DNA of 64,000 bases. Origin: Escherichia coli. GTDB taxonomy: Bacteria > Pseudomonadota > Gammaproteobacteria > Enterobacterales > Enterobacteriaceae. Shown one piece after another: positions 15,001-64,000 of this stretch (positions are counted from its first letter, which is position 1; each line of letters begins with the position of its first letter). Under the pieces are notes generated by a model. It searched no databases and was not told the origin of the DNA. It was given only the letters and a program-made list of their open reading frames with translations. Both the position numbers and the translations under genes were made by a program. The DNA is taken from the NCBI RefSeq assembly GCF_050320075.1, contig NZ_CP190018.1; one strand, given 5' to 3'.

Positions 15001-16911
15001 CATCGCGGCGGCAGGTACCGTCAGACTCCAGGAGCCATCAGCCTGCACGGTAGTGGTAAAACTCTGTCCAGCCAGGGTTACTGTGACGGTTTGTCCTGTC
15101 TCGGCCTGTTGAGTGCTACCGGTAAGGGTCAGTGGCGCACCTTTTTCTGCGCCACTGATAATGTCATCGCCGGAGACGGTGTTAATGGTGATTAACGGAG
15201 AAACACCGACCAGCGTGATTGCTCGAGACGCCGCGCCGGTATTTCCTGCAGTATCTGTCACGGTGACGAAAATCGTATTGGCTCCGCGATCCAGCGTGCG
15301 GGTTACCGCTGGGTCCAGCGCCACATTCCAGCTGCCATCTGCCAGCACAATGCCCGTCAGGACATGAGTGCCCAATTTCACCGTTACCGTATCGCCAGGA
15401 GAAGCACCGCTGACTTGTCCGGAGATGATCTGCGCGACGGCCTGCTCAGCATTATTAAGAATATCGTCGCCCGCTACGGTATTAACACTGACCACGGGTG
15501 CTGAGGTATCTACCGTGAAATTCGCGCTGTGGCTGGTGCTGTTCCCTGCCCGATCGCTGACACTGGCATTGACAGCGTAATTACCCTCCGCCAGCGCCTG
15601 GACTTCCGTGGCAGGCAGCGTCACTTGCCAGGTTCCGTCGCTACCGACGGTTGCTGTATGGCTTTTCCCGTTGACGGTCAGTGTTACGGTTTGCCCCGCT
15701 TCTGCATTCGACGTGCCGCTCAGTACCAGCGCGACGTTATGTTCCGCAGCACTGATGATGTTGTCCTGAGCGATGGTGTTGATGGCAAGCGTTGGCGGTT
15801 GGGTATCGACCGTTAGCAGTTGCACGCCGGTGACGGTATTGCCTGTGGCGTCTTTCCCGCTGACCAGCACTGCCTGATTCCCTTCGCCTAACGCCTGCGC
15901 ATCGGCGGTCGGTACCTGCACGCTCCAGGCACCGTTAGCGCCTACGCTGGTGGTGTAGGTTTTGCCGTTTAGCGTAACGGTGAGTTCTGTTCCCTGTGCC
16001 AGATGACTACTGGTGCCAGAAAGCGTAAACCCGGCGGCCTGTTCGCTGGCGTTAATAATGTTATCGCCTGCGGTGGTGGCAACCTGCACGCTGGCCTGAC
16101 TATTGTCGATGGTTAACGTTATCGAACCGGCGTCAGTGATGGTACTGCCGACGATTTGCACCACTGACCAGGTATGTTCGCCCGCGCTTTGCGTGGGCAA
16201 ATCGACGCTCCAGCGTCCATCGCTACCGACCTGAGTACTGGCGATGGTGTCACCATTGCTGTCTTTAATCTGGATGGTCGCCCCCGCCTGCCCGCTGCCG
16301 CTAAAGGTTGGCGTAGTGTCATCGGTGGTATCGTTGGCGGAAAGAATACCGCGTTGATCGCCCTGATTATCGGTTACCAAAAACGATGGCGTGGCGTTGC
16401 CGGGTTCGGCTGGCGGTGGGTTGTTAACCACTTCAGTTTTTGAGTCATCATCGCCACCGCTTGCCAGTAAAGCGCCAAGCGCGCCGCCACCTACCGCCGC
16501 CCCCGCCAGCCATCCCCACGGGAAAGCCGTCGTCTGGCCGACGATATCAAGGTACGGCGCAATGCTTTCAATTGCGGTGGTCTGAGCGGTCAGCTCCACG
16601 GGCGCTAATCCACCTGCCGCGGTATCGGCAAATGTTACGTGGGTCAGTTGTTGACCATCGACAAACACCAGTTCGGATTGTTCGCTGGTATTTGCCGCTT
16701 GCAGGAAATAACCGTTGCAGCGGATCACCGTGCCGTCCTGCATATAGATCAACAAGTCATTTCCGTCACGAACATAACGCGCAACGGCAGATGCCTGAGC
16801 ATGAACCTGCACCACAGAGGGCTCATAAATGACAACCGTAACGTCGCCAGGATTGATCAGCGTTTGTTTGACGGATGTTTTTCGCGAAATAACATCAATA
16901 ATCAGGCTCAT
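1..16911 (-). CDS. Giant repetitive surface adhesin, probable type I secretion substrate (BapA/LapA-like, Ig-like tandem repeats); 5' end in window, 3' end beyond window start (partial, 5,637 codons in window)
   Basis: ATG at 16911-16909 with AGGAA about 8 nt upstream and an in-frame TAA 11 codons further upstream. Window positions 1-3 are in frame, and no minus-strand ORF ending inside 1-16911 is reported in this frame. My translation of the first ~600 codons gives an N-terminal module (MSLIIDVISRK...), a hydrophobic Gly/Ala stretch, then repeated ~100-aa units of the type VDTxxPxxxINTxAGDxIxxAxE...G.TVTxTLNG...DG.W. Plus-strand ORFs across the region are short low-complexity antisense shadows. 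Confidence 0.8.
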   Translation of the reverse strand, partial: MSLIIDVISRKTSVKQTLINPGDVTVVIYEPSVVQVHAQASAVARYVRDGNDLLIYMQDGTVIRCNGYFLQAANTSEQSELVFVDGQQLTHVTFADTAAGGLAPVELTAQTTAIESIAPYLDIVGQTTAFPWGWLAGAAVGGGALGALLASGGDDDSKTEVVNNPPPAEPGNATPSFLVTDNQGDQRGILSANDTTDDTTPTFSGSGQAGATIQIKDSNGDTIASTQVGSDGRWSVDLPTQSAGEHTWSVVQIVGSTITDAGSITLTIDNSQASVQVATTAGDNIINASEQAAGFTLSGTSSHLAQGTELTVTLNGKTYTTSVGANGAWSVQVPTADAQALGEGNQAVLVSGKDATGNTVTGVQLLTVDTQPPTLAINTIAQDNIISAAEHNVALVLSGTSNAEAGQTVTLTVNGKSHTATVGSDGTWQVTLPATEVQALAEGNYAVNASVSDRAGNSTSHSANFTVDTSAPVVSVNTVAGDDILNNAEQAVAQIISGQVSGASPGDTVTVKLGTHVLTGIVLADGSWNVALDPAVTRTLDRGANTIFVTVTDTAGNTGAASRAITLVGVSPLITINTVSGDDIISGAEKGAPLTLTGSTQQAETGQTVTVTLAGQSFTTTVQADGSWSLTVPAAAMGNLPDGAVAITASVTDLSGNTGNTSRTITVDSQAPALSIDPLTADNIINAAESGQDLPITGTTDAQPGQTVTVTLNGQTYQGVVQPDGTWSVTVPAANVGALADGNATVTASVNDIAGNPTSVSRVALVDATPPVVTINPVATDNVINTPEHTQAQIISGTVTGAQAGDIVTVTLNNVDYTTVVDGSGNWSLGVPASVVSGLVDGSYPINVSVTDRAGNTGSQSLTVTVNTAAPLIGINSIAGDDVINASEKGADLQITGTSDQPVNTAITVTLNGQNYTTTTDASGNWSVTVPASAVTALGQANYTVTAAVTSNIGNSNTASHNVLVDSALPGVTINPVATDDIINAAEAGVAQTISGQVTGAEDGDTVTITLGGNTYTATVGSNFTWSVSVPAADIQALGNGDLTVSASVTNQNGNTGSGTRDITIDANLPGLRVDTVAGDDVVNIIEHGQALVVTGSSSGLAEGTPLTVTINNVEYTTAVQADGSWSVGVTAAQVSTWPAGTVNIAVSGESSAGNSVSITHPVTVDLTPAAIAINTIATDDVINAAEKGADLTLSGTTTNVEPGQTVTVTFGGKNYTASVASDGSWTATLPAADLTALPEGSASAQASVSNINGNSASAVHNYSVDSSAPTIIINTVASDNIVNASEADAGVTVSGSTTAEAGQIVTVTLNSPTVQTYQATVQADGSWSINIPAADLEALTDGSHTLTATVNDKAGNPASTTHNLAVDLTVPVLTINTIAGDDIINAAEHGQALVISGSSTGGEAGDVVTVTLNSKTYTTTLDASGNWSVGVPAADVTALGSGPQTVMATVTDAAGNSDSETHTVTVNLTAPTIGINTIATDDIINATEKGADLQISGTSNQPAGTTITVTLNGQNYTATTDASGNWSTTVPASAVGALGEASYTVTANVTDSAGNSNSASHNVQVNTALPGVTINPVASDDIINAAESGVAQTISGQVTGATAGDTVTVTLGGKTYTATVQGNLSWSVDVPAADIQAIGNGDLTVNASVTNGVGNTGSGSRDITIDANLPGLRVDTVAGDDVVNSIEHGQALVITGSSSGLAAGAALTVVINNVTYGATVLADGTWSLGVPAADVGNWPAGTVNITVSGTNTAGTTTTITHPVTVDLAAVAISINTVSGDDVINAAEKSADLTLSGSTSGVEAGQTVTVTFGGKTYTATVAGDGSWTTTVPAADLSALRDGDATVQASVSTINGNTASATHAYSVDATAPTLAINTIATDDILNAAEAGNPLTISGSSNAEAGQTVTVTLNGVTYTGTVQADGSWSVSVPTADLSNLTASPYTVSASVNDKAGNPATATHGLAVDLTVPVLTINTVSGDDIINAAEHGQALVISGSSTGGEAGDVITVTLNSKTYTTTLDASGNWSVGVPAADVTALGSGPQTITATITDIAGNSDDASRTVTVNLTAPTIGINTIASDDVINATEKSADLQITGTSNQPAGTTITVTLNGQNYTATTDSSGNWSATVPASAVSALGEASYTVTANVTDSAGNSNSASHNVLVNSALPAVTINAVATDDIINAAESGNAQTISGQVTGAAAGDTVTVTLGGNTYTATVQANLSWSVSVPAADIQAIGNGSLTVNASVTNVVGNTGNGSRDITIDANLPGLRVDTVAGDDVINSIEHNQALVITGSSSGLTAGTALTVEINNVTYGATVLADGTWSLGIPAADVSNWPAGTVDITVSGTNSAGTTSTITHPVTVDLAGVAITINTLSGDDVINAVEKGETLVVSGSTSGVEAGQTVTVTFGGKNYTTTVESNGSWTVNVPPADLAALPDGAGNVQASVSNINGNSAQADRAYSVDATAPLVTINTIASDDILNVSEAGAGITISGTTTAQVGQTLTVTLNNNTYQTTVQADGTWSVNVPATDLSGLTASSYTVTATVSDKAGNPASADHALAVDVTAPDLTINTVAGDDIINAIEHGQALVVSGTSTGAAAGDVVTVTLNGKNYTTTLDASGNWTVGIPAADVTALATGSQTITASLSDRAGNSDSTTHNVTVDLSGPTLTISTVSDDDIINSTEKTQDLTISGGSSGLATGTTVTVMLNGLAYSATTDSSGNWSVTVPASAVGALGEAVYQISASATDSAGNNGSTTHTVNVESLLPGVIINTVAGDDIINAAEIAVAQTISGQVTGTAVAGNTVIVTIGGNQYTATVQPDLSWSVSVPANVLQALGNGELTISASVTNSANNTGTATHDIVIDANLPGLRVDTVAGDDVINSIEHTQALVITGSGSGLAAGAALTVVINSVTYGATVLADGTWSVGVPAADVTNWPAGTVNIAVSGTNTAGTTTSISHPVTVDLAAVAITINTLSTDDVINAAEKGSDLQLSGTTSDVEAGQTITVIFGGKSYTTTVAAGGTWGLTIPAADLATLPDGAANVQASVSNVAGNSAQATHAYSVDATAPSVTINTIASDDILNAAEAGSALTISGTSTAEAGQTVTVTLNGVNYSGNVQADGSWSVSVPTGDLANLTASPYTVSAAVSDKAGNPASATHNLTVDLAAPVVTINTVAGDDIINATEHAQAQIISGSATGATTGNTVSVTIGTTTYTTVLDANGNWSIGVPASVISALAQGDVTITATVTDSAGNSGTASHTVTVALGAPVLAINTIAVDDIINATEKGADLAISGSSNQPAGTQITVTLNGQNYTTTADASGNWSVTVPASRVSALGEATYTVTAAATDSDGNSGSASHNVQVNTALPGVTINVVATDDIINAAEAGVDQTISGQVTGATAGDTVTVTLGGATYTATVQANLSWSVDVPAAALQALGNGELTISASVTNSVGNTGNGTREITIDANLPGLRVDTVAGDDVVNIIEHGQALVITGSSSGLATDSNVTLTINGQTYVAAVLADGSWSVGVPAADVSAWPAGTVTITASGSTTAGNPVSVTHPVTVDLTAVAVSINAITADDVINAAEKGAALTLSGSTSGVEAGQTVTVTFGGKTYTASVAANGSWSTSVPAADMAALRNGDASAQASVSNVNGNNATTTHAYSVDASVPTVTINTIAGDDILNAAEAGAALTITGSSTAEAGQTVTVTLNGANYTGTVQTDGSWSISVPPADLSALTASNYTVSAAVSDKAGNPASVNHNLTVDTSVPVVTINTVAGDDVINATEHAQAQIISGSATGAATGSTVTVTIGTNTFTTVLDASGNWSVGVPASVVSALANGTVTINASVTDAAGNSGSATHQVTVNTGLPSITFNAISGDNVLNADEKGQPLTISGSSTGLATGAQVTVTLNGHNYSATTDAAGNWTLTVPVSDLAALGQANYIVSASATSAAGNTASSQANLLVDSGLPGVTINTVAGDDIINAAEAGAAQTISGVVTRAAAGDTVTVTLGGNTYTAQVQADLSWSVSVPAADLQALGNGDLTITASVTNANGNTGSGTRDITIDANLPGLRVDTVAGDDIVNSIEHGQALVITGGSSGLNAGVPLTITINGTAYSATVQADGSWSVGIPAANVSAWPAGALTVEVDGQSSAGNPVGVSHPFTVDLTAVAISISTVASDDVINAAEKGTNLTLSGSTSGIESGQTVTVTFGGKTYTASVAANGSWSVNVPAADLAILPDGAANVQASVSSASGNSASATHAYSVDASAPTLTINTIASDDILNATEAGSPLIISGTSTAETGQTVTVTLNGATYSGNVQADGSWSVSVPPSALGALSASNYTVSATVNDKAGNPGSASHNLAVDTTAPVLTINTVVGDDIINDAEHAQALVISGTSTGGEAGDVVSVVLNGKTYTTTLDASGNWSVGVPAADVAALGSGAQTITASVSDRAGNSDDASRTVTVSLTAPVISINTIAGDDVINATEKGSDLALSGISDQPAGTAITVTLNGQNYSATTDSSGNWSVTVPASAVSALGEASYSVTASVTNAQGNSSTASHNVQVNTALPGVTINPVTTDDIINAAEAGSAQTISGQVTGAAAGSTVTVELGGKTYTATVQADLSWNVSVPAADWQALGNGELTVNASVTNAVGNTGSGTRDITIDASLPGLRVDTVAGDDVVNIIEHSQAQVITGSSSGFAAGTALTVVINNQTYAATVLANGSWSVGVPATDVSNWPAGTLNITVSGANSAGTQTSITHPLTVDLTTVAVSINSITSDDVINAAEKGAALTLSGSTSGVEAGQTVTITFGGKTYTTTVAANGSWSTTVPAVDMATLRDGDASAQVRVTNVNGNSATATHEYSVDSAAPTVTINTIASDNIINASEAAAGVTVSGTSTAETGQTLTVTLNGTNYQTTVQADGSWSLTLPASDLTALANNGYTLTASVSDLAGNPGSASKGVTVDTTAPVISFNTVAGDDVINNVEHTQAQIISGTATGAVAGDRLVVTIAGQQYVTSTDASGNWSVGVPASVISGLADGTVTISATITDSAGNSSTQTHNVQVNTAAVSLSVSTISGDNIINAAEAGSALTLSGTGTNFAAGTVVTVLLNGKGYSATIQSNGSWSVNVPAADVAALSDGTSYTVSASAQDSAGNSATASRSVAVDLTAPVISINTVSTDDRLNAAEQQQPLTLNGSTSAEVGQTVTVTFGGKTYTATVAANGTWALNVPAADLAALGQGAQTITASVNDRAGNPGQTTHALTVDTVAPTVTIATVAGDDIINNAEQLAGQTISGTTTAEVGQTVTVTFNGQSWTATVGSGGSWSVFIPAQQFAGLSDGSYTISATVSDQAGNPGSASRGVTLNGDVPSVTINTFAGDDVVNAAEHGSSLVISGTTTAPVGQTLTLTLNGKTYTTTVQTGGSWSYTLGSVDVTALADGNAYVINASVSNAIGNTGSSNHTITVDLSAPAMGINIDSLQADTGLSSSDFITSVSPVVVNGSLTAALASNETAQISIDGGVTWTTLTVTGTTWRYNDSRTLTDGSYLYQVRVIDAAGNVGATDSQNVVIDTIAPDPAVKTIAINAITTDTGLITNDFVTSDTTLAVSGTLGAALSSGEFAQISIDGGTTWQNLSVSGLTWTYLDG
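300..16200 (-). repeat. Intragenic tandem repeat array: ~300-bp (about 100-aa) Ig-like units organised in ~1.8-kb super-repeats
   Basis: Recurring motifs at regular spacing: ctccagcttaaat near 3050, 4850, 6645, 8440, 10240, 12040 (and a variant near 13840); gttttgccgccaaaggtgacggtgac-like near 1291, 2489, 4276, 6076, 7871, 9671, 11471, 13271. Antisense shadow ORFs (MPPKVTVTVCP...) recur at 2489, 6080, 7874, 9674. Array bounds are approximate. Confidence 0.8.
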
Positions 16912-17019
16912 AATGGCATTCCTGATAAATGGCGCACATCCTTAGCGAGTCCATTTATCTAAATAAGACAAAGGTAATCACTCAACAACGATGCATACCT
17001 GATATTAATAATGGCAGGA

Positions 17020-18375
17020 TTATTTCAAGTCGGGTAAGTCGTTGTATAAGCCCTGTTTAATTCCCGCTAATGGAATAAGGTTATTAACCGCAGCGGCATA
17101 ATTCACTGCGGCGACCCAGCCATCATAATTGGCATTTATTTCAGCCGATTGCGCCTGAAAGACATCTTGCTCGACGGTTAATAGATCATTCAGGCTGCGT
17201 TTACCCAATTTATATTCATTTTGGTAGACATCTCGCGTTCTGTGCGCACTTTCAGATTGCGCTAACCCAGCCTCTTCACGACCCCGTGCGCCTGTCCAGT
17301 TGGCATATGCCACAGACGCTCGTTGCAGCACATCCAGTTTTGCCTGTTCGACCTGCGAGGCAGAGATTTTTTGTTGCCCTTCAGCCTGTTGCACCTGGGC
17401 AGAAACCGCGCCGCCCTGATACAGCGGCGCGTTAACGTTCAGTTGTAGCTGATCATCCCAATACGAGCGGTCGCTGGTCTGGTAGCGCGTTTTGCCCCCC
17501 TGAATACTCAGCGTTGGCCAGTATTGCGCTTTCGTTTTTTCCACGCCGTACTGTGCTGACTGGCGTAAGTTTTCTGCCGCCAGCACCAGCGGGATGGACT
17601 GGTAATCAATATTTTTCAGCGATACCGGCTGCTCGGCTAATTCAGCAGGTGGCGCGGCTATCGCCTCCGGCTGTACGCCAGTGAGCACCGCCAGTTGCGC
17701 TTTGGCGCTTGCCATCTGCGCCTGATATTGCTCCAGCGTTGAGCGCATTCCGGCAATGCGCGTCTGGGCCTGTAATTCATCCGACGACGAGTTCAGGCCA
17801 GCGTTAGCACGCAATGCTGCCATGTTGTAGACGTTTTCCAGCGAGTGAATATTGCGTTGAGCCGCATCGCACAAAGCCTGATAACGACTGACTTCCATAT
17901 AGGCAGTCGCCGTTTTCTCTGCAACATCGGTTAAGGTTGCCATCAATTTAAAGCGGTAGCTGTCACGGGCGGCAGTTTGCAGTTTGATATCGTTGTTAGT
18001 TTTACCAAAGTCATACACCAGCTGTGTCAGGGTTATGCCATACGAAACGTTGTTATCAAGCCTGCCACTGGAGTCCGTTTGTCGGGACGGTCCCGCATTG
18101 CCGGTTAATCCAACGTGCGGATACCAGGCACTTTTGGCTTCATCAATTTGCGCTTCGCCAATACCTATCTGCGCCGCCTGTTGAGTGACGTCGGGATTTC
18201 GCGCAAAGGCGCGTAATATACTTTCCTGTAAAGATAATTGGGCAACTGGCGTTACCGCTGGGGCGTTCGCCCATTGTGGCAGCGGTGCAGCAATTGTAGC
18301 TTCTCCCATCACCATAAAACTTATTAAAAAAATAAACCCATTATTTTTACGGCTTTTAAACTGGAATCGCGCCAT
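17020..18375 (-). CDS. TolC-family outer-membrane efflux/secretion protein (probable T1SS outer-membrane factor)
   Basis: 451-aa ORF with N-terminal signal-peptide-like segment (MARFQFKSRKNNGFIFLISFMVMGEATIA) and coiled-coil-rich Q/A/L composition typical of outer-membrane factor proteins; AGGAAG about 10 nt upstream; same strand and 108 bp upstream of the giant adhesin start. Confidence 0.7.
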   Translation of the reverse strand: MARFQFKSRKNNGFIFLISFMVMGEATIAAPLPQWANAPAVTPVAQLSLQESILRAFARNPDVTQQAAQIGIGEAQIDEAKSAWYPHVGLTGNAGPSRQTDSSGRLDNNVSYGITLTQLVYDFGKTNNDIKLQTAARDSYRFKLMATLTDVAEKTATAYMEVSRYQALCDAAQRNIHSLENVYNMAALRANAGLNSSSDELQAQTRIAGMRSTLEQYQAQMASAKAQLAVLTGVQPEAIAAPPAELAEQPVSLKNIDYQSIPLVLAAENLRQSAQYGVEKTKAQYWPTLSIQGGKTRYQTSDRSYWDDQLQLNVNAPLYQGGAVSAQVQQAEGQQKISASQVEQAKLDVLQRASVAYANWTGARGREEAGLAQSESAHRTRDVYQNEYKLGKRSLNDLLTVEQDVFQAQSAEINANYDGWVAAVNYAAAVNNLIPLAGIKQGLYNDLPDLK

Positions 18376-18680
18376 AGATAAGTCACTTCCTTCCAGGTCA
18401 TTATTTTAACTGGTTTTTATAACTAGTCTCATTTTATTAAGAAGGGTAATAACTTGTGCATCTCTTTTGTCGATCATTGATATTGGCAAAGAAATGCAGC
18501 TAAAAAGCTTATACGTTATTTATTTAGAATACACTACGACTTTTAGATTACCATCATACACATTAAGAATAATCCACGGCAATAAGTGATTAGCATCACA
18601 GATTTATCGCGTATATATCATTTTTTTGTGACTTATTTATTAAAGGAATAAGAAAGGTAATTTGAATTAAAGACAAAGGC

Positions 18681-18703
18681 GCAGTACAGGCTGTACTGCG
18701 CAC
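18681..18703 (-). terminator. Probable rho-independent terminator downstream of ybaT
   Basis: Perfect hairpin gcgcagtaca-ggc-tgtactgcgc followed on the minus strand by a T-rich run (CTTTGTCTTTAATT). Confidence 0.5.
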
Positions 18704-18712
18704 AGAGAGGTG

Positions 18713-20005
18713 TTATACGGTTTTATTGCGCTTCATGACCATTGCCACAATAAGGCTGAGTAAGATTGCACCAATAATCCATATCAACGCACGGCTGCCC
18801 TGGGACCACAGGCTGTAGATAAAGCCAATGATCACCAACAACATCACCAACGTACCAACGATAAGAATCGGCAACAAGGCGTGAATATCATGACGCAGGC
18901 GGATCGCCACCACAAACACCGCCAGATAGCAGATCAAAAAGGTGGCGCTGGCAACGCTGGCGAGTGAGCCTAAATTCAGCGCCGCCGTCATCAGCATAAT
19001 CAGCACCACGACAATGATGTTGCCCCAGGTACTCTGCCGCCACAGGGATTTATTCATTAGCTTCGGCAGTTCGCGTTCGCTGCCCATGTTGTCCATGATG
19101 TTAAACACGGCGAACAGGTTCGCGTTGATGGCTGAAGCCGTCGCCAGTAAAGCGCCGATGACGACGATCACATAACCCACATGCCCGAGCAGCGGAGAAG
19201 CTGCCTGCGCTACGGCGGTATCGGCATATTTTTCTAACTCTAAAGCCGATACATCGCTAAGCAAAACCAGCGCCAGCGAGATATAAAGCAACGTGGTAAC
19301 GCCAATCGCCACCAGAAACGCCCGTGGCATAATGACCTGCGGATCTTTCACTTTATCCGCCGCGTTCGCCATCATGCCAAAGCCCGCATAGGCAAGGAAG
19401 GTTATCCCGATACAGGAGAAGAACGCACCGGAGCTGGGGGGCGCAGAGACAGAAATATGCGCCGGTTGCAGCGACCAGACACCGGCAATAATCAGCAATA
19501 ACAGGATCATCATTTTAATGCCGACGAGGATCACTTCCAGCCGCCCTACCGCATGGTTGCTTAAGGAGTTGAAAAGCGTCATCACCGCAATGATCCCCAA
19601 CGCGTAGAGCAATATAAGGTGCTCCTCCTGGCTGCCTTCATGCAAAAACTGCACGGCATAAGCGCCAAAAGCACGGGCGACCATGGCGATGCTCACCGCC
19701 AGCGTCAACAGGTACAGTAACGAGAGCGCCAGCGAAAAGACGCCGTTGCCTAATCCGCGACGAAAGAAGTCGATAATACCGCCATTGCTGGGATAGCTCG
19801 CCCCCAGGCGCGCATAGGCATAACCGGAAAACATCGCCACAATACCGCCAAATGCAAAGGCGACCCAGGTCGAGGCTTCCATTAGCAACGCAGCCTGCCC
19901 CAGCAGCGCGAAGATCCCCGCCCCCACCATTGCCCCAATACCGATGGAAACGACGTTCCATAGACCGAGGGGTTTGTTACCGTTATTACCTTCCGTGTTC
20001 ATCAT
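18713..20005 (-). CDS. ybaT: APC-family amino acid permease YbaT
   Basis: 430-aa polytopic membrane protein ORF; start codon 2 nt from the glsA stop (operon with glsA). Confidence 0.9.
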   Translation of the reverse strand: MMNTEGNNGNKPLGLWNVVSIGIGAMVGAGIFALLGQAALLMEASTWVAFAFGGIVAMFSGYAYARLGASYPSNGGIIDFFRRGLGNGVFSLALSLLYLLTLAVSIAMVARAFGAYAVQFLHEGSQEEHLILLYALGIIAVMTLFNSLSNHAVGRLEVILVGIKMMILLLLIIAGVWSLQPAHISVSAPPSSGAFFSCIGITFLAYAGFGMMANAADKVKDPQVIMPRAFLVAIGVTTLLYISLALVLLSDVSALELEKYADTAVAQAASPLLGHVGYVIVVIGALLATASAINANLFAVFNIMDNMGSERELPKLMNKSLWRQSTWGNIIVVVLIMLMTAALNLGSLASVASATFLICYLAVFVVAIRLRHDIHALLPILIVGTLVMLLVIIGFIYSLWSQGSRALIWIIGAILLSLIVAMVMKRNKTV

Positions 20006-20007
20006 GA

Positions 20008-20940
20008 TCAGCCCTTAAACACGTTATAGCCGAGTTGCTTAGCGACCGATGCCACCATTTTTTGACCGCGAACACTGTTGCCTTCTTCGTCCAGCGGTGG
20101 TGAGAACGCGGCAATTCCCATCACGCCAGGGACGACCGCCAGAATACCGCCACCTACACCGCTTTTGCCCGGTAAACCAACGCGATACGCCCAGTCACCG
20201 GAGCGACCATACAGCCCTTCCATCATCATTTCAGCCAGAATGTACGGCACGTTGTCGGCCTGAAGAACGCGCTTATGAGTCAGCGGATTCACACCACCCG
20301 CCGCCAGCGTCGCGCCAAGCGTTGCCAGTTCAACAGTATTGATGAGCGTGGAGCACTGACGGGTGTACACGTCACAGGCTTCCATTGCATCACAATAGAG
20401 ATATCCGGCGGAGTACAGCAGCCAGGCAATGGCCCGGTTATGGAAGTTGGTTGTTTGTTCCGACTGGTTGACTTCGTCAGAGAGCGCTACCTGCTCACCA
20501 GCCAGTTGTTGTTGGATATGTAAAATTCGCTGCCAGCGTTGTTCGGCATTTTCAGCGTTAATCAGGCTGGTGGTGGCAATAGCGCCAGCATTTACCAGTG
20601 GCGACAGCGGTTTGCCGCCATGCAACTCTAAGGCGATAACTGAGTTAAAGGGCAATCCGGTCGGGTCAGCGCCAACTTTGTCCTGTACCGCCTGCGGGCC
20701 GACATCTTCTAACGCAAGGGCTAACGTACAGACTTTCGAGATGGATTCCAGCGCAAAACGGTAATCACTATCACCCGCGCGATAGATGTTGCCATCGCAG
20801 GTCACAATAGCCACTGCTGCCAGTTGACCAGGTACATTCGCCAGAAAGGGAATGTAGTCGGCATTTTGTCCGCCGTTAAGTGAGTGAAATTGGGTGTAAG
20901 CCTGATCCACTGCCTGCTGTAATTTGTTTGCATCTAACAT
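20008..20940 (-). CDS. glsA: Glutaminase 1
   Basis: 310-aa ORF, serine-dependent glutaminase family; sits upstream of ybaT on the same strand. Confidence 0.9.
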   Translation of the reverse strand: MLDANKLQQAVDQAYTQFHSLNGGQNADYIPFLANVPGQLAAVAIVTCDGNIYRAGDSDYRFALESISKVCTLALALEDVGPQAVQDKVGADPTGLPFNSVIALELHGGKPLSPLVNAGAIATTSLINAENAEQRWQRILHIQQQLAGEQVALSDEVNQSEQTTNFHNRAIAWLLYSAGYLYCDAMEACDVYTRQCSTLINTVELATLGATLAAGGVNPLTHKRVLQADNVPYILAEMMMEGLYGRSGDWAYRVGLPGKSGVGGGILAVVPGVMGIAAFSPPLDEEGNSVRGQKMVASVAKQLGYNVFKG

Positions 20941-21131
20941 CTTTTGTTAACTCCTTTTTATAGATGCGGGAGGTAATTCCTCACCCCGGTGCCGATTTTC
21001 AGGCATCCTGATTTAACTTAGCACCCGCAACTTAACTACAGGAAAACAAAGAGATAAATGTCTAATCCTGATGCAAATCGAGCCGATTTTTTAATCTTTA
21101 CGGACTTTTACCCGCCTGGTTTATTAATTTC

Positions 21132-21162
21132 TTGACCTTCCCCTTGCTGGAAGGTTTAACCT
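21132..21162 (+). promoter_or_regulatory. copA promoter with MerR-type 19-bp spacer and CueR operator dyad
   Basis: TTGACC (-35) followed by the dyad CCTTCCCCTTGCTGGAAGG (21136-21154) and a -10-like element about 19 bp downstream; located about 45 bp upstream of the copA ATG. Confidence 0.8.
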
Positions 21163-21202
21163 TTATCACAGCCAGTCAAAACTGTCTTAAAAGGAGTGTT
21201 TT

Positions 21203-23707
21203 ATGTCACAAACTATCGACCTGACCCTGGACGGCCTGTCCTGCGGTCACTGCGTTAAACGCGTGAAAGAAAGTCTCGAACAGCGCCCGGATGTTGAGCA
21301 GGCGGATGTGTCTGTCACTGAAGCGCACGTTACCGGGACTGCCAGTGCAGAACAGCTGATCGAAACCATCAAACAAGCGGGTTATGACGCATCTGTAAGC
21401 CACCCAAAGGCTAAACCGCTGGCGGAGTCATCAATCCCGTCGGAAGCACTGACAGCGGTTTCTGAGGCGCTTCCGGCAGCGACCGCCGATGACGATGACA
21501 GCCAGCAGTTGCTGCTGAGCGGCATGAGCTGCGCCAGCTGTGTCACCCGCGTACAAAATGCGTTGCAAAGCGTACCGGGCGTCACTCAGGCACGGGTAAA
21601 CCTGGCGGAGCGTACTGCGCTGGTGATGGGCAGTGCCTCCCCACAAGATTTAGTGCAGGCGGTGGAAAAAGCGGGCTACGGCGCGGAAGCGATTGAAGAT
21701 GACGCTAAACGCCGCGAGCGCCAGCAGGAAACCGCAGTCGCTACGATGAAGCGCTTCCGCTGGCAGGCAATTGTCGCACTGGCGGTGGGTATCCCGGTGA
21801 TGGTCTGGGGGATGCTCGGCGATAACATGATGGTCACCGCTGACAACCGCAGCTTGTGGTTAGTTATCGGCCTGATAACCCTGGCAGTGATGGTTTTCGC
21901 CGGCGGCCATTTTTACCGTAGTGCATGGAAAAGCCTGCTGAACGGTGCAGCGACGATGGATACGCTGGTGGCGCTAGGTACTGGCGTGGCGTGGCTCTAT
22001 TCGATGAGCGTCAACCTGTGGCCGCAGTGGTTCCCGATGGAAGCGCGACATCTTTATTACGAAGCCAGCGCGATGATTATCGGTCTGATCAATCTCGGCC
22101 ATATGCTGGAAGCGCGCGCGCGTCAGCGTTCTTCTAAGGCGCTGGAGAAATTACTCGATTTAACCCCACCGACGGCGCGCCTGGTCACCGACGAAGGTGA
22201 AAAAAACGTGCCGCTGGCAGATGTTCAGCCAGGTATGTTACTGCGCCTGACGACCGGCGACCGTGTGCCGGTAGATGGTGAGATTACCCAAGGCGAAGCG
22301 TGGCTGGATGAAGCGATGCTGACGGGCGAACCTATCCCGCAGCAAAAAGGCGAAGGCGATAGCGTCCATGCCGGGACAGTGGTACAGGACGGCAGTGTGC
22401 TGTTTCGTGCCAGTGCGGTCGGCAGCCATACTACGCTGTCACGGATCATTCGCATGGTGCGACAGGCCCAGAGCAGCAAGCCAGAAATCGGTCAACTGGC
22501 GGATAAAATCTCCGCCGTGTTTGTGCCGGTAGTGGTAGTCATTGCGCTGATCAGTGCGGCAATCTGGTATTTCTTTGGTCCGGCACCGCAGATTGTCTAT
22601 ACCCTGGTGATTGCCACCACGGTGCTGATTATCGCCTGTCCGTGTGCGCTGGGACTGGCGACGCCGATGTCGATTATTTCGGGCGTCGGGCGGGCGGCTG
22701 AGTTTGGTGTGCTGGTGCGGGACGCCGACGCGCTGCAACGCGCCAGTACGCTCGACACCGTGGTGTTCGATAAAACCGGGACGCTGACCGAAGGGAAGCC
22801 GCAGGTTGTCGCAGTAAAAACATTTGCTGATGTTGATGAAGCGCAGGCATTGCGTCTGGCGGCGGCGCTGGAGCAAGGTTCCAGCCACCCGCTGGCACGG
22901 GCGATCCTCGATAAAGCAGGTGATATGCAGCTACCGCAGGTCAACGGTTTCCGCACATTGCGCGGGCTGGGTGTGAGCGGTGAAGCTGAAGGTCATGCGG
23001 TATTGCTGGGCAATCAGGCGCTGTTAAATGACCAGCAAGTTGATACTAAAGCGATTGAGGCAGATATTTCAGCTCAGGCATCACAAGGGGCAACGCCTGT
23101 GCTGCTGGCGGTTGACGGGAAAGCGGTAGCCCTGCTGGCTGTACGCGATCCATTGCGTAGTGATAGCGTGGCGGCGCTGCAACGCCTGCATAAAGCGGGA
23201 TATCGTCTGGTGATGCTAACCGGGGATAACCCAACCACCGCCAATGCGATCGCCAAAGAAGCAGGGATTGATGAGGTGATAGCCGGGGTGCTACCGGACG
23301 GTAAAGCCGAAGCGATCAAACGTCTGCAAAGTGAAGGACGTCAGGTGGCAATGGTGGGCGACGGCATTAACGACGCGCCAGCGCTGGCTCAGGCGGATGT
23401 CGGTATTGCGATGGGTGGCGGCAGTGATGTTGCCATTGAAACCGCGGCGATTACCCTGATGCGCCATAGCCTGATGGGTGTTGCGGATGCGCTCGCGATT
23501 TCCCGCGCAACGCTGCGCAATATGAAGCAGAACCTGCTCGGCGCGTTTATCTACAACAGTATCGGTATTCCGGTCGCCGCCGGTATTTTGTGGCCGTTCA
23601 CTGGAACACTGCTTAACCCGGTGGTCGCCGGAGCGGCAATGGCGCTCTCGTCGATTACCGTAGTGAGTAACGCCAACCGGTTGCTGCGGTTTAAACCGAA
23701 GGAATGA
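21203..23707 (+). CDS. copA: Copper(I)-exporting P1B-type ATPase
   Basis: 834-aa ORF with two N-terminal GLSCGHC / GMSCASC metal-binding motifs, CPC transmembrane motif, DKTGT phosphorylation site and GDGIND motif; SD GGAG upstream. Confidence 0.95.
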
Positions 23708-23789
23708 TTGGTATTTACTTAATGCGTTTGTGAGATCCAGTTCTTGTTGCGCTCCTTTTATGAGTAATGCCATATAAAGTGACTGGCGC

Positions 23790-23990
23790 AGGGAGCGCGC
23801 AGGGGGCGGCCAATCGCCGCCGCCCCCTGCACCCCCGGGCTCTGGCGAACAAAATCTCCGCTGCGCGGTACCCTCAGCTTATCCCTTGCGGCTACCGGGT
23901 CGGGCGCGAGGTAACATCCCTGTAAAACGCGCCCTCAGCCCACATCCATGTGGGCTGCCCCGGCCTTCAGGGAACGCCTCGGCGATTTTG
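23790..23990. repeat. GC-rich palindromic non-coding element in the copA-ybaP spacer
   Basis: No ORF of 60 aa or more that is not attributable to overlap with copA or ybaP. Contains a 12-bp perfect inverted repeat gcagggggcggc / gccgccccctgc with an 8-nt loop and a second palindrome gcccacat-cc-atgtgggc; GC content well above the flanking sequence. Confidence 0.35.
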
Positions 23991-24135
23991 ACGCCACCAA
24001 CACCGGTGCAGTCTTTCGTTTCAAAGCAAAAACAATTTTTCGATCATATTTAAGCTACCACTGAACAAGCCTCATAACTCCATTTGCGCCATCCCTCCCC
24101 GCGCGCTAGCATGATATTTCACAAAGGGAGGTCGT

Positions 24136-24930
24136 ATGGATCTGTTGTACCGGGTAAAAACGCTTTGGGCCGCGCTGCGCGGTAATCATTACACCTGGCC
24201 TGCTATCGATATCTCTCTTCCCGGCAATCGCCATTTTCATCTGATTGGCAGTATTCATATGGGCAGCCACGATATGGCTCCCCTGCCCACCCGTTTGCTC
24301 AAAAAGCTCAAAAACGCCGATGCGCTGATCGTCGAGGCGGATGTTTCCACCAGCGATACGCCTTTTGCTAATTTGCCTGCCTGCGAGGCGCTGGAAGAGC
24401 GCATTAGCGAGGAGCAACTCCAAAACCTGCAGCACATTAGCCAGGAGATGGGCATTTCTACCTCACTCTTTTCTACCCAACCGCTGTGGCAAATCGCGAT
24501 GGTTCTTCAGGCGACGCAGGCACAAAAACTGGGGCTGCGGGCAGAATACGGTATCGATTACCAGCTATTGCAGGCGGCGAAGCAACAACATAAACCCGTG
24601 ATTGAACTGGAAGGGGCTGAAAACCAGATTGCCATGTTGCTCCAGCTCCCTGACAACGGACTGGCACTGCTGGACGATACGCTGACCCACTGGCACACCA
24701 ATGCACGGTTGCTGCAACAAATGATGAGCTGGTGGCTGAATGCGCCGCCGCAAAATAATGAAATAACGCTGCCTAATACGTTCAGTCAATCGCTGTACGA
24801 TGTGCTGATGCATCAGCGAAATCTCGCCTGGCGGGACAAATTATGCGCCATGCCGCCGGGGCGCTATGTGGTCGCAGTCGGTGCACTACACCTGTATGGA
24901 GAAGGGAATTTGTCGCAGATGTTGCGCTAA
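24136..24930 (+). CDS. ybaP: TraB/GumN-family protein YbaP
   Basis: 264-aa ORF, ATG at 24136 with GGAGG upstream. Confidence 0.85.
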   Translation: MDLLYRVKTLWAALRGNHYTWPAIDISLPGNRHFHLIGSIHMGSHDMAPLPTRLLKKLKNADALIVEADVSTSDTPFANLPACEALEERISEEQLQNLQHISQEMGISTSLFSTQPLWQIAMVLQATQAQKLGLRAEYGIDYQLLQAAKQQHKPVIELEGAENQIAMLLQLPDNGLALLDDTLTHWHTNARLLQQMMSWWLNAPPQNNEITLPNTFSQSLYDVLMHQRNLAWRDKLCAMPPGRYVVAVGALHLYGEGNLSQMLR

Positions 24931-25012
24931 AAAAATGGCCAATATCGCTATTGGCCCGTCAAAGAGGAATTTCATTTTTTTATTATTATGCCGTCACTTT
25001 AAGCGACGGTGT
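24929..25012 (-). ncRNA. chiX: ChiX (MicM/SroB) small regulatory RNA
   Basis: Minus-strand sequence ACACCGTCGCTTAAAGTGACGGCATAATAATAAAAAAATGAAATTCCTCTTTGACGGGCCAATAGCGATATTGGCCATTTTTT matches the ChiX sequence as I recall it, including the terminator hairpin (ggccaata/tattggcc) and U-run; lies between ybaP and ybaK. Confidence 0.85.
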
Positions 25013-25118
25013 AACTCGATTGTCGCTCAATCTCACCATCCTGCCAATACTCTTAGGCAAGATGACTCTTTTTTTTGGACCGCCATCAGGCGTATGCTTG
25101 CTTCGTTTTTTTGTTTAA

Positions 25119-25613
<495 letters not shown>

Positions 25614-25618
25614 GCATT

Positions 25619-25648
25619 GTGCCGGATGCAAATATCCGGCACTTTCGG
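25619..25648. terminator. Terminator hairpin shared by convergent ybaK and ushA
   Basis: gtgccggat-gcaaat-atccggcac stem-loop followed by TTTCGG on the plus strand, between the ybaK stop (25613) and the ushA stop (25650). Confidence 0.55.
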
Positions 25649-25649
25649 A

Positions 25650-27302
25650 TTACTGCCAGCTCACCTCACCTTTCGGTTCATAAACACTCACATCCAGCGG
25701 CGAGCTCTTCTGGATATACGCTTTCAGCACTTCGGCATCAATAAAGCCGGTATTCACATAGCCCGGTTTGTTATCAAGGCGCGGACAGCCATCACCGCCG
25801 GTGGCATTGAAGTTTAATGTCGCCATGCGGTAAGTTTTCGCCGGATCGACCGGTTCGCCGTTGATTTTCAGGTCGTTGAGTTTGCCGTCTTTCGCCACAA
25901 AGCTAACGTTAGCAAATTGCGGGTAGGCACCTGAATCTGGCTTCATTTGTGCGACGGCGGTCAGGTAATCAATCACCTCTTTCCCGGTCATGTCGGCATA
26001 CACCACCACATTGCCGAATGGCTGCACTTTCAGCACGTTTTTATAGCTGATATCGCCTGCTTCGATAGAATCACGAATTCCGCCTCCGCTCATCACCGCA
26101 AAGTCAGCACCAGTGCGATCCATTTGGGCTGCCAGAATTAACCGCCCCATATTGGTCTGTACAAAACGCACTTTGTCACGATCGCCTTCCAGACGACCAT
26201 TGGTTTCGCCTATTTTCACGTCCAGCTGCGCTTTGCCTTTGTTCTGGAACGGTGATAACAGCGAGATCATTTGCTGGTTTTCAGCGATTTCAGGAGTGTA
26301 AAGCACGCGCTCGCTTTTCCCGTCTTCCCAGGTCACTTTCTTCTTCAGGTTCACCGGAATCAGCTGGTAGTTAACCATTTTCATTTCGCCATTACGAAAC
26401 TCAAAATCAGCCCGTCCCACGTATTTGCCCCACTCATGCGCCTGCACAATCCAGATGCCGTTTTGTTGATCCGGTTTGCATGGCGTACCCGGCACGTAAT
26501 CGACCTGTTTTTTGTTTTCTGCCGCCATGCAGACCGGAGCTTGCGAGTGACCACCGACGATCATCGCCAGCGATCCGGCAGGCAGCGCGCGCGCCATCTC
26601 CACATCGCCCGGTGCGTTAGAGCCGTGCTCACCATTGTCGTAATGCCCCATATGGGTCGCCGCGATAATAATGTCTGGCTTTTCTGTCTGTTGCAGCTCC
26701 TGAATCACCAGCTTCGCTTCATCGGCGGGCTTACGGAACTCAATATCGGTGAAGTTTTCTGGGTTGCCTAACTTCGCTGTGTCATCCGTCGTCAGGCCAA
26801 TAACGGCAATTTTCAGATCCTGACGCTTAAACAGCGCCCATGGTTTAAACAGGCGCTCGCCGGTACTTTTCTGGTAGATATTGGCAGAAAGTAACGGGAA
26901 CTTTGCCCACTTTTCCTGCTGGCGTAATACGGTGAGCGGGTTATCAAATTCATGATTACCGATTGCCATCGCATCGTAGCCCACCAGATTCATGCCGCGA
27001 AAATCAGGTTCGGCATCCTGTAAGTCAGACTCGGGCACGCCAGTGTTAATGTCGCCACCGGAAAGTAGCAGCACGCTACCGCCTTCAGCCGCAACCTCTT
27101 TGCGGATACCATCCACCAGCGTTTTTTGCGCCGCCAGACCATATTCGCCATATTCATTGCGCCAAAAATGCCCATGATGATCATTGGTATGCAGAACTGT
27201 AATTTTGTAGGTTTTATCCTGCTCATACGCCAGAGCAGCTTCACTCGCCAGTGTAAATGTGGTTAACAGTGCTAACGCCACGCCCCGCTGCAATAATTTC
27301 AT
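25650..27302 (-). CDS. ushA: UDP-sugar hydrolase / 5'-nucleotidase (periplasmic)
   Basis: 550-aa ORF with signal peptide and NDHHGHF metallophosphoesterase motif. Confidence 0.95.
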   Translation of the reverse strand: MKLLQRGVALALLTTFTLASEAALAYEQDKTYKITVLHTNDHHGHFWRNEYGEYGLAAQKTLVDGIRKEVAAEGGSVLLLSGGDINTGVPESDLQDAEPDFRGMNLVGYDAMAIGNHEFDNPLTVLRQQEKWAKFPLLSANIYQKSTGERLFKPWALFKRQDLKIAVIGLTTDDTAKLGNPENFTDIEFRKPADEAKLVIQELQQTEKPDIIIAATHMGHYDNGEHGSNAPGDVEMARALPAGSLAMIVGGHSQAPVCMAAENKKQVDYVPGTPCKPDQQNGIWIVQAHEWGKYVGRADFEFRNGEMKMVNYQLIPVNLKKKVTWEDGKSERVLYTPEIAENQQMISLLSPFQNKGKAQLDVKIGETNGRLEGDRDKVRFVQTNMGRLILAAQMDRTGADFAVMSGGGIRDSIEAGDISYKNVLKVQPFGNVVVYADMTGKEVIDYLTAVAQMKPDSGAYPQFANVSFVAKDGKLNDLKINGEPVDPAKTYRMATLNFNATGGDGCPRLDNKPGYVNTGFIDAEVLKAYIQKSSPLDVSVYEPKGEVSWQ

Positions 27303-63677: not shown

Positions 63678-64000
63678 CCTCCGGCATAGCCGGAGGTTTT
63701 TCAAATGCGCCTGTAAGGCTCTGTTACCAGCCGCGCCCTAACAGGCGCATACGATCTGACATTTGCATTCAACTTCGTTACTTACGGCCCGTAAACGGGC
63801 TGCCCGGATATGGAATCGATAACTGCTCCCCCATTTTATCCTCTTCAAGCTGGTGCTTTATGTAGTCCTGTATCTTCGCCGTGTTCTTACCCACCGTATC
63901 GACATAGTACCCTCGGCACCAGAACTCCCTGTTTCTGTATTTGAATTTCAAATCCCCAAACTGCTCGTAAAGCATCAGACTGCTTTTCCCTTTCAGATAT
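63678..64000 (-). mobile_element. Partial IS200-like insertion sequence (one end plus 3' part of tnpA)
   Basis: tnpA fragment plus flanking structured sequence: perfect hairpin cctccggc-ata-gccggagg with T-run (63678-63701) and an 8-bp inverted repeat gcgcctgt...acaggcgc (63706-63747). The exact IS terminus was not determined. Confidence 0.5.
63778..64000 (-). CDS. tnpA: IS200-family (Y1/HUH) transposase TnpA, C-terminal part only (5' end beyond window end)
   Basis: Reported ORF MLYEQFGDLKFKYRNREFWCRGYYVDTVGKNTAKIQDYIKHQLEEDKMGEQLSIPYPGSPFTGRK matches the C-terminal third of IS200 TnpA as I recall it; the reading frame continues upstream past position 64000. Confidence 0.75.
   Translation of the reverse strand, partial: YLKGKSSLMLYEQFGDLKFKYRNREFWCRGYYVDTVGKNTAKIQDYIKHQLEEDKMGEQLSIPYPGSPFTGRK

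Follow-up and report, generated by a model that had tools for sequence, protein, structure and literature searches.

The copA promoter of Escherichia coli K-12 (PcopA) is controlled by CueR, a regulator of the MerR family, and has been described with a core of CCTTCC-N7-GGAAGG, a spacer of 19 bp and a distance of 2 bp to the -10 hexamer (PMC8169799). The arrangement of the two genes differs between enterobacteria: Salmonella carries them as a divergon, whereas a comparative study of 2006 predicted a ybaS-ybaT-ybbI operon for E. coli (PMC1526738). In K-12, cueR follows ybaT after 124 bp. The second described system that is relevant here is O-island 28 (OI-28), reported as an acquired O-island which encodes a type I secretion system (T1SS) with RTX/Ig-like adhesins required for early adherence, and which is activated by RstA and Ca2+, with RstA binding shown in strain EDL933 (PMC12758282, Gut Microbes 2025). 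Neither cueR nor ybaT is mentioned in that publication, and our literature search found no paper linking cueR, ybaT and a T1SS or an hlyD remnant.

Here, we present the analysis of a 64-kb stretch of DNA (64,000 nucleotides, hereafter the window) that contains copA and its upstream genes. Positions 15500-21300 show about 100% identity to many RefSeq genomes and identify the DNA as E. coli chromosome. The genome of strain YZLc1-3 (NZ_CP123240.1) differs from the window by a single mismatch in 24,419 bp compared and was used to extend the map beyond the left edge. The features of the region are as follows.

1-18684, no strand: in-window part of the O-island 28 segment absent from K-12 (blastn breakpoints, K-12 versus an island strain).
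16911 to beyond position 1, minus strand: siiEA, giant BapA-related T1SS adhesin (5,637 codons in the window, all open).
17020-18375, minus strand: tolC28, TolC-family outer-membrane component of the O-island 28 T1SS (TIGR01844, E 1.8e-124).
18376-18678, minus strand: T1SS-cluster regulatory region in front of tolC28, with an exact RstA box copy within.
18656-18669, upstream of tolC28: RstA box TAATTCAAATTACC, an exact copy of the published box.
18679-18701, minus strand: intact intrinsic terminator of glsA-ybaT (terminator scan; 10-bp stem, T-rich tail).
18713-20005, minus strand: ybaT, amino-acid permease of the APC family (profile match and annotation).
20008-20940, minus strand: glsA (ybaS), glutaminase A (NF009020 equivalog, E 2.6e-169; annotation).
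20941-21202, no strand: glsA-copA intergenic region, same as in K-12 except for one extra A.
21132-21162, plus strand: copA promoter (-35 TTGACC, 21132-21137; 19-nt spacer, 21138-21156; -10 TAACCT, 21157-21162).
21203-23707, plus strand: copA, Cu(I)-exporting P-type ATPase (open reading frame; RefSeq annotation of identical DNA).

The copA gene is the same as in K-12, where a joined coding sequence for the CopA(Z) chaperone is annotated; the slippery heptamer CCCAAAG, from which the CopA(Z) frameshift product arises, is kept at 21403-21409. An exact match to the sigma-54 motif reported for K-12 ybaT (PMC4591121) was not found in the window. The Rfam scan of positions 16500-26000 returned sroB/ChiX as its sole match.

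The first-pass annotation of this DNA had attributed a canonical CueR operator with a 19-bp spacer to copA, and this is fully borne out. The window contains a single copy of the 19-mer CCTTCCCCTTGCTGGAAGG, on the plus strand at 21136-21154, with a chance expectation of about 0.02 matches even if three mismatches are tolerated. It corresponds to the dyad core CCTTCC-N7-GGAAGG lying within the 19-nt spacer, the extended dyad ACCTTCC-N7-GGAAGGT occupying 21135-21155; its final GG extends to 21154 and the first base of the -10 hexamer is 21157, which leaves the gap of 2 bp. A spacer over-long for sigma-70 with a dyad inside is what characterizes MerR-type promoters, and a sigma-70 scan with spacers of 16-18 nt failed to pick up the copA promoter because of this length, as would be expected. 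The whole stretch, at a distance of 41 nt from the downstream copA start codon (ATG, 21203), is base for base the same as in K-12 and EDL933, including both hexamers, the spacer and the dyad of K-12 PcopA; the extra A of the window lies in the copA 5' untranslated region just before the Shine-Dalgarno sequence. A search of the whole window for further CueR boxes with up to two mismatches gave four additional weak matches, a number within chance, and none of them is situated at a promoter. By its sequence, the copA promoter is a textbook CueR-responsive promoter of the kind already known.

The place next to ybaT is occupied by the T1SS/adhesin cluster, as had been noticed before, with tolC28 and siiEA as its members in the window. 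In NZ_CP123240.1, the order is ybaT, a tolC-like gene, siiEA (20,775 nt, 6,924 amino acids, named ‘BapA-related adhesin SiiEA’ in RefSeq), an ABC permease/ATPase gene, a gene for an HlyD-family adaptor, and cueR. The island thus comprises tolC28, siiEA, hlyB28 and hlyD28, siiEA being situated between tolC28 and hlyB28, and it constitutes a type I secretion system with a giant adhesin. The NCBIfam cut-offs were exceeded for TIGR01844 in the window and for TIGR03375 and TIGR01843 in NZ_CP123240.1 to the left of it, so that a complete T1SS set of TolC-family protein, ABC permease/ATPase and HlyD-family adaptor is present; hlyB28, hlyD28 and cueR all lie beyond the left edge of the window. The O-island 28 of EDL933 (tolC28, rtxA28/rtxB28, hlyB28, hlyD28) shares the ybaT-cueR locus and the gene order, has the RstA box upstream of tolC28 in common, and encodes HlyD and CueR proteins under the same RefSeq accessions as NZ_CP123240.1. 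The adhesin gene is the point of difference: in EDL933 it is pseudogenised by an internal stop that splits it into the two published ‘RTX’ genes, whereas siiEA is uninterrupted over its 5,637 codons in the window and over the 6,924 amino acids in NZ_CP123240.1. Since EDL933 shows the same layout, the cluster next to ybaT is identified by its gene content as the already known O-island 28 of EHEC.

The cueR gene itself is not found within the 64-kb window. The first-pass annotation had given the K-12 order correctly and had reasoned that cueR must be at least 18 kb away or elsewhere; in NZ_CP123240.1 the gene is present 25,910 bp from ybaT, at the window-equivalent positions -7605 to -7198 and hence about 7.2 kb to the left of base 1. 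It lies at this distance because the strain retains O-island 28. As in EDL933, cueR directly follows hlyD28, and its ATG overlaps the hlyD28 stop codon (ATGA, in the context CGATGA). The encoded CueR of 135 amino acids differs from the K-12 protein solely by D103N, and S77 as well as the Cu(I)-binding Cys112 and Cys120 are all kept. In a survey of complete E. coli genomes, cueR was found in 5,424 of 5,426, the siiEA-tolC28-ybaT side of the island in 958 and the hlyD28-cueR side in 959. These counts, together with the place of the gene in the matching genome, indicate that cueR is almost certainly part of the source genome and stands there right after hlyD28, a position deduced from genomes that match over 24.4 kb. 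The distance from cueR to the copA operator would then be 28.3 kb in the island arrangement compared with about 2.6 kb in K-12. The earlier suggestion that the copper regulon is probably intact agrees with the unchanged promoter and with the intact cueR of the matching genome.

A comparison of the two arrangements places the origin of the difference in K-12. Relative to the island strain, K-12 is without a segment of 25,786 bp (window-equivalent -7101 to 18684). The breakpoint at 18684/18685 cuts the ybaT terminator in its 3' arm, and the second one leaves the final 95 nt of hlyD28 in place. In the alignment, the 124-bp ybaT-cueR spacer of K-12 consists of 28 bp after the ybaT stop codon, a single nucleotide, and a 95-nt remnant of the 3'-end of hlyD28, in which one base is missing from an A-run and causes a frameshift. 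The remnant is translated as VVAVDIRTGKK, followed after the frameshift by VLEYLLKPFNKAQEALRER and a stop codon, the counterpart in HlyD28 being MVATVDIRTGKKSVLDYLLKPFNKAQEALRER and a stop codon. HlyD28 aligns with the TIGR01843 profile (type_I_hlyD) through the last profile position (422/422), and the K-12 remnant is therefore regarded as the fossil of a real gene and K-12 as a deletion derivative. In a K-12 genome, PGAP annotates the remnant as a frameshifted partial pseudogene. Chance similarity was considered as an explanation of the remnant and is excluded by a gapped alignment that runs unbroken from the remnant through cueR, with 478 of 504 positions identical (95%). The terminator tells the same story from the other end, with a fold of -16.1 kcal/mol (z -3.9) in the window compared with no hairpin in K-12 (z +1.0). 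Given the hlyD28 fossil and the truncated ybaT terminator at the junction, the K-12 order reads as a deletion scar, and the adjacency of ybaT and cueR in K-12 is evidently a derived state brought about by a 25.8-kb deletion.

The K-12 junction was counted where a query spanning it was covered to 80% or more at a single place, and it is present in 4,459 of the 5,426 complete E. coli genomes; the island segment is absent from 82%. Among the matches listed, position 1077 of the query is the break point in every genome with the scar, including K-12 relatives, O104:H4 and ST131. This shared junction points to a single deletion allele, with recombinational spread and vertical inheritance not being distinguished by it. 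Sliding windows between K-12 and the island strain showed a mild rise in divergence, of about 5% in cueR versus 2-2.6% in the flanks. The comparison had been aimed at an abrupt recombination boundary close to the island, but gave no more than this mild elevation, which is not taken as evidence of one.

A further reading, which we hold only tentatively and consider less probable than not, is that the position of cueR affects the regulation of cueR itself and not that of copA. In strains with the island, the T1SS operon activated by RstA and Ca2+ would have cueR as its final cistron, and in strains of the K-12 type cueR would be reached by read-through from the acid- and copper-induced glsA-ybaT. 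Several observations are consistent with this: no terminator could fit between hlyD28 and cueR with their ATGA overlap, glsA, cueR and every gene between them share one direction, and the ybaT terminator is intact in the window and destroyed in K-12. The loss of half of this terminator would give a structural basis to the predicted glsA-ybaT-cueR operon of K-12, which corresponds to the operon prediction of 2006 cited above. In addition, simple sigma-70 scans upstream of cueR detected no consensus promoter in cueR sense in either haplotype. Two candidates noted by eye, a possible -35 hexamer improved in K-12 by the change from CTGGAT to TTGAAT and a TATTAT created by the K-12 deletion junction, were dropped for lack of a credible partner hexamer. 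Three different decay products of the island retain at least the final 55-95 nt of hlyD28. On the other side, a weak internal promoter could evade a simple scan, CueR abundance is described as also being controlled by proteolysis (PMC5329002), and copA output is not known to respond to small shifts in CueR dose. It is thus a possibility, though a doubtful one, that cueR is wired into whichever upstream operon adjoins it, namely the O-island 28 T1SS in about 18% of E. coli and glsA-ybaT in the K-12 type, and that the terminal 55-95 nt of hlyD28 contain expression signals of cueR. If true, such signals would explain the retention of the hlyD28 end in every independent decay of the island, and cueR could be perturbed in the delta-OI-28 and delta-hlyD28 mutants that have been published. 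Because hlyD28 and cueR overlap, cueR expression should be checked in strains with deletions of OI-28 or hlyD28.

The first-pass annotation had regarded the cluster as an insert, and according to this view the T1SS/adhesin island entered a K-12-like ybaT-cueR junction and displaced cueR in the present lineage. The view can appeal to the absence of the segment from K-12 and the majority of complete E. coli genomes and to the literature, in which the segment is called an acquired O-island (PMC12758282). It is nevertheless highly improbable and is contradicted by the K-12 junction itself, since the frameshifted end of hlyD28 and half of the ybaT terminator are found exactly there, and the stretch that was kept codes for the conserved C-terminus of the HlyD family. 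The distribution within the genus argues in the same direction. In E. whittamii and Escherichia sp. E1V33, hlyD28 and cueR are joined and the island occupies the same site. The decay products elsewhere differ from one another: the scar of one further Escherichia species is that of K-12, the scar of E. albertii is another one and retains about 65 nt of hlyD28, and a mosaic of internal deletions is seen in one divergent E. coli-like lineage. As the island or its remnants occur in other Escherichia species, it evidently predates E. coli and has undergone several separate decays.

The older history of the locus becomes apparent from other genera. A CueR scan of species-representative genomes returned 80 loci, in most of which copA and cueR are adjacent and divergent with 96-110 bp between them; the genera with such a divergent pair include Citrobacter, Enterobacter, Klebsiella, Kluyvera, Lelliottia, Trabulsiella and Yokenella. 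In the divergons of Salmonella, Citrobacter, Enterobacter, Klebsiella and Kluyvera, the -35, the dyad and the -10 are the same as in the window and copA is orthologous. The difference lies upstream, with the cueR start codon only about 10 nt from the copA -35 in the divergon genera and the same gap filled in Escherichia by glsA-ybaT plus the T1SS island or its scar. Aligned with nine other enterobacterial copA-cueR spacers, the homology of E. coli breaks off at 21130/21131, directly in front of the -35. In several other genera, unrelated cargo of 0.6-7.7 kb was observed in the same gap. Since copA and cueR are adjacent in other enterobacterial genera, their physical link must have been broken before the K-12 deletion and, judged by this comparison, was already broken in the Escherichia ancestor. 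The earlier statement that the linkage is broken therefore holds in part: cueR is indeed displaced from ybaT, but not by an insert, and the link between copA and cueR had already been lost in the ancestor of the genus.

Taken together, the region is very probably an ordinary copper control region, with an intact cueR 25.9 kb past ybaT behind a retained O-island 28, and with the K-12 order having arisen by later deletion. The ancestral enterobacterial state would have been the tight copA/cueR divergon. The glsA-ybaT genes and the T1SS cluster would then have entered this divergon in the Escherichia lineage, in the same direction as cueR, and most E. coli including K-12 would subsequently have lost 25.8 kb in one deletion, which created the adjacency of ybaT and cueR. 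With respect to function, established CueR biology suggests that a diffusible CueR dimer would bind the dyad in the 19-bp spacer, and that its Cu(I)-loaded form would distort the DNA for the sigma-70 polymerase. Because CueR acts in trans, the distance between the genes should be irrelevant to copA induction, and normal copper regulation of copA is expected despite the separation of 28 kb. That cueR might be missing or relocated, with its canonical operator orphaned and copA misregulated, derives from the absence of the gene from the window and can practically be dismissed in view of its near-universal presence in complete E. coli genomes, the matching counts of the two island sides, and its position directly after hlyD28 in both NZ_CP123240.1 and EDL933.

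Both the promoter and the island are already known, and the scar has already been flagged by automatic annotation. For copper biology, the arrangement described here is of little consequence, as the promoter follows the textbook and a trans-acting regulator is present. With regard to the genus, O-island 28 is commonly presented as an acquisition of EHEC, whereas here it emerges as an old Escherichia feature that was lost by K-12 and most E. coli, and the region upstream of cueR in the K-12 reference is the fossil of a secretion gene.

Presence/absence differences lie on both flanks of cueR, because strains that keep O-island 28 (OI-28, the tolC28-siiEA-hlyB28-hlyD28 cluster between ybaT and cueR), EDL933 included, carry an additional 2.6 kb between cueR and ybbJ (13368-15976 of the locus of NZ_CP123240.1, the genome matching the window; outside the window) that K-12 does not have. 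This segment encodes a YadA-family adhesin, a lipoprotein or hypothetical protein, and two further hypothetical proteins, whereas in K-12 the stop codons of cueR and ybbJ abut. The sequence of cueR itself also differs between the island haplotype and the K-12-type scar haplotype, in which a remnant of hlyD28 remains. Over 504 bp (4280-4782 of the K-12 locus), cueR and the remnant are approximately 5% divergent, and the core genes flanking this segment are 2-2.6% divergent. The raised value could reflect an old polymorphism or recombination.

On the island side, the stop codon of hlyD28 overlaps the start codon of cueR (ATGA, 16381-16384 of the NZ_CP123240.1 locus, outside the window). The EDL933 mutants delta-OI-28 and delta-hlyD28, described in PMC12758282, have therefore lost DNA just 5′ of cueR or overlapping its start; a possible polar effect of these deletions on cueR is not discussed in that study. 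Over the 24.4 kb compared, the window has one mismatch to NZ_CP123240.1, a non-synonymous change at 12105, in codon 1603 of siiEA (Thr in the window, Ala in NZ_CP123240.1).

Around copA, the sole difference from K-12 across the 262-bp intergenic region is one additional A in the 5′ UTR (~21188), directly before the Shine-Dalgarno sequence, giving AAAAGGAG instead of the AAAGGAG of K-12 and EDL933. The heptamer in the coding sequence, listed below, is a programmed frameshift site leading to the soluble chaperone CopA(Z), which is annotated in K-12 as a joined CDS. In addition, at 23706-24075 the window lacks ybaQ, a HigA-family antitoxin gene that K-12 and EDL933 carry between copA and ybaP. 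Its position is occupied by a GC-rich segment of approximately 370 bp, whose core (~23742-24012) is a repeat that carries no annotation and is present in multiple copies in E. coli, at 2-8 places per genome. The ybaQ-less arrangement is common to 346 of 5,426 genomes. An Rfam scan of 16500-26000 detected a single small RNA and nothing else.

Further features of the window:
21403-21409: slippery heptamer CCCAAAG in copA, kept
24929-25012, minus strand: sroB/ChiX small RNA (Rfam RF00368, 82 bits), between ybaP and ybaK
~63778-64000: IS200/IS605-family tnpA, starting close to the right edge of the window, from the annotation of the matching genome

Beyond E. coli, the copA-cueR spacer, otherwise approximately 108 bp long, contains 0.6-7.7 kb of unrelated genes in several species of Citrobacter, Enterobacter, Kosakonia, and Pseudescherichia. 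Such cargo was found at L012, L032, L042, L064 and other loci of our CueR scan of species-representative genomes. The gap between copA and cueR appears to be a recurrent integration site across the Enterobacteriaceae.
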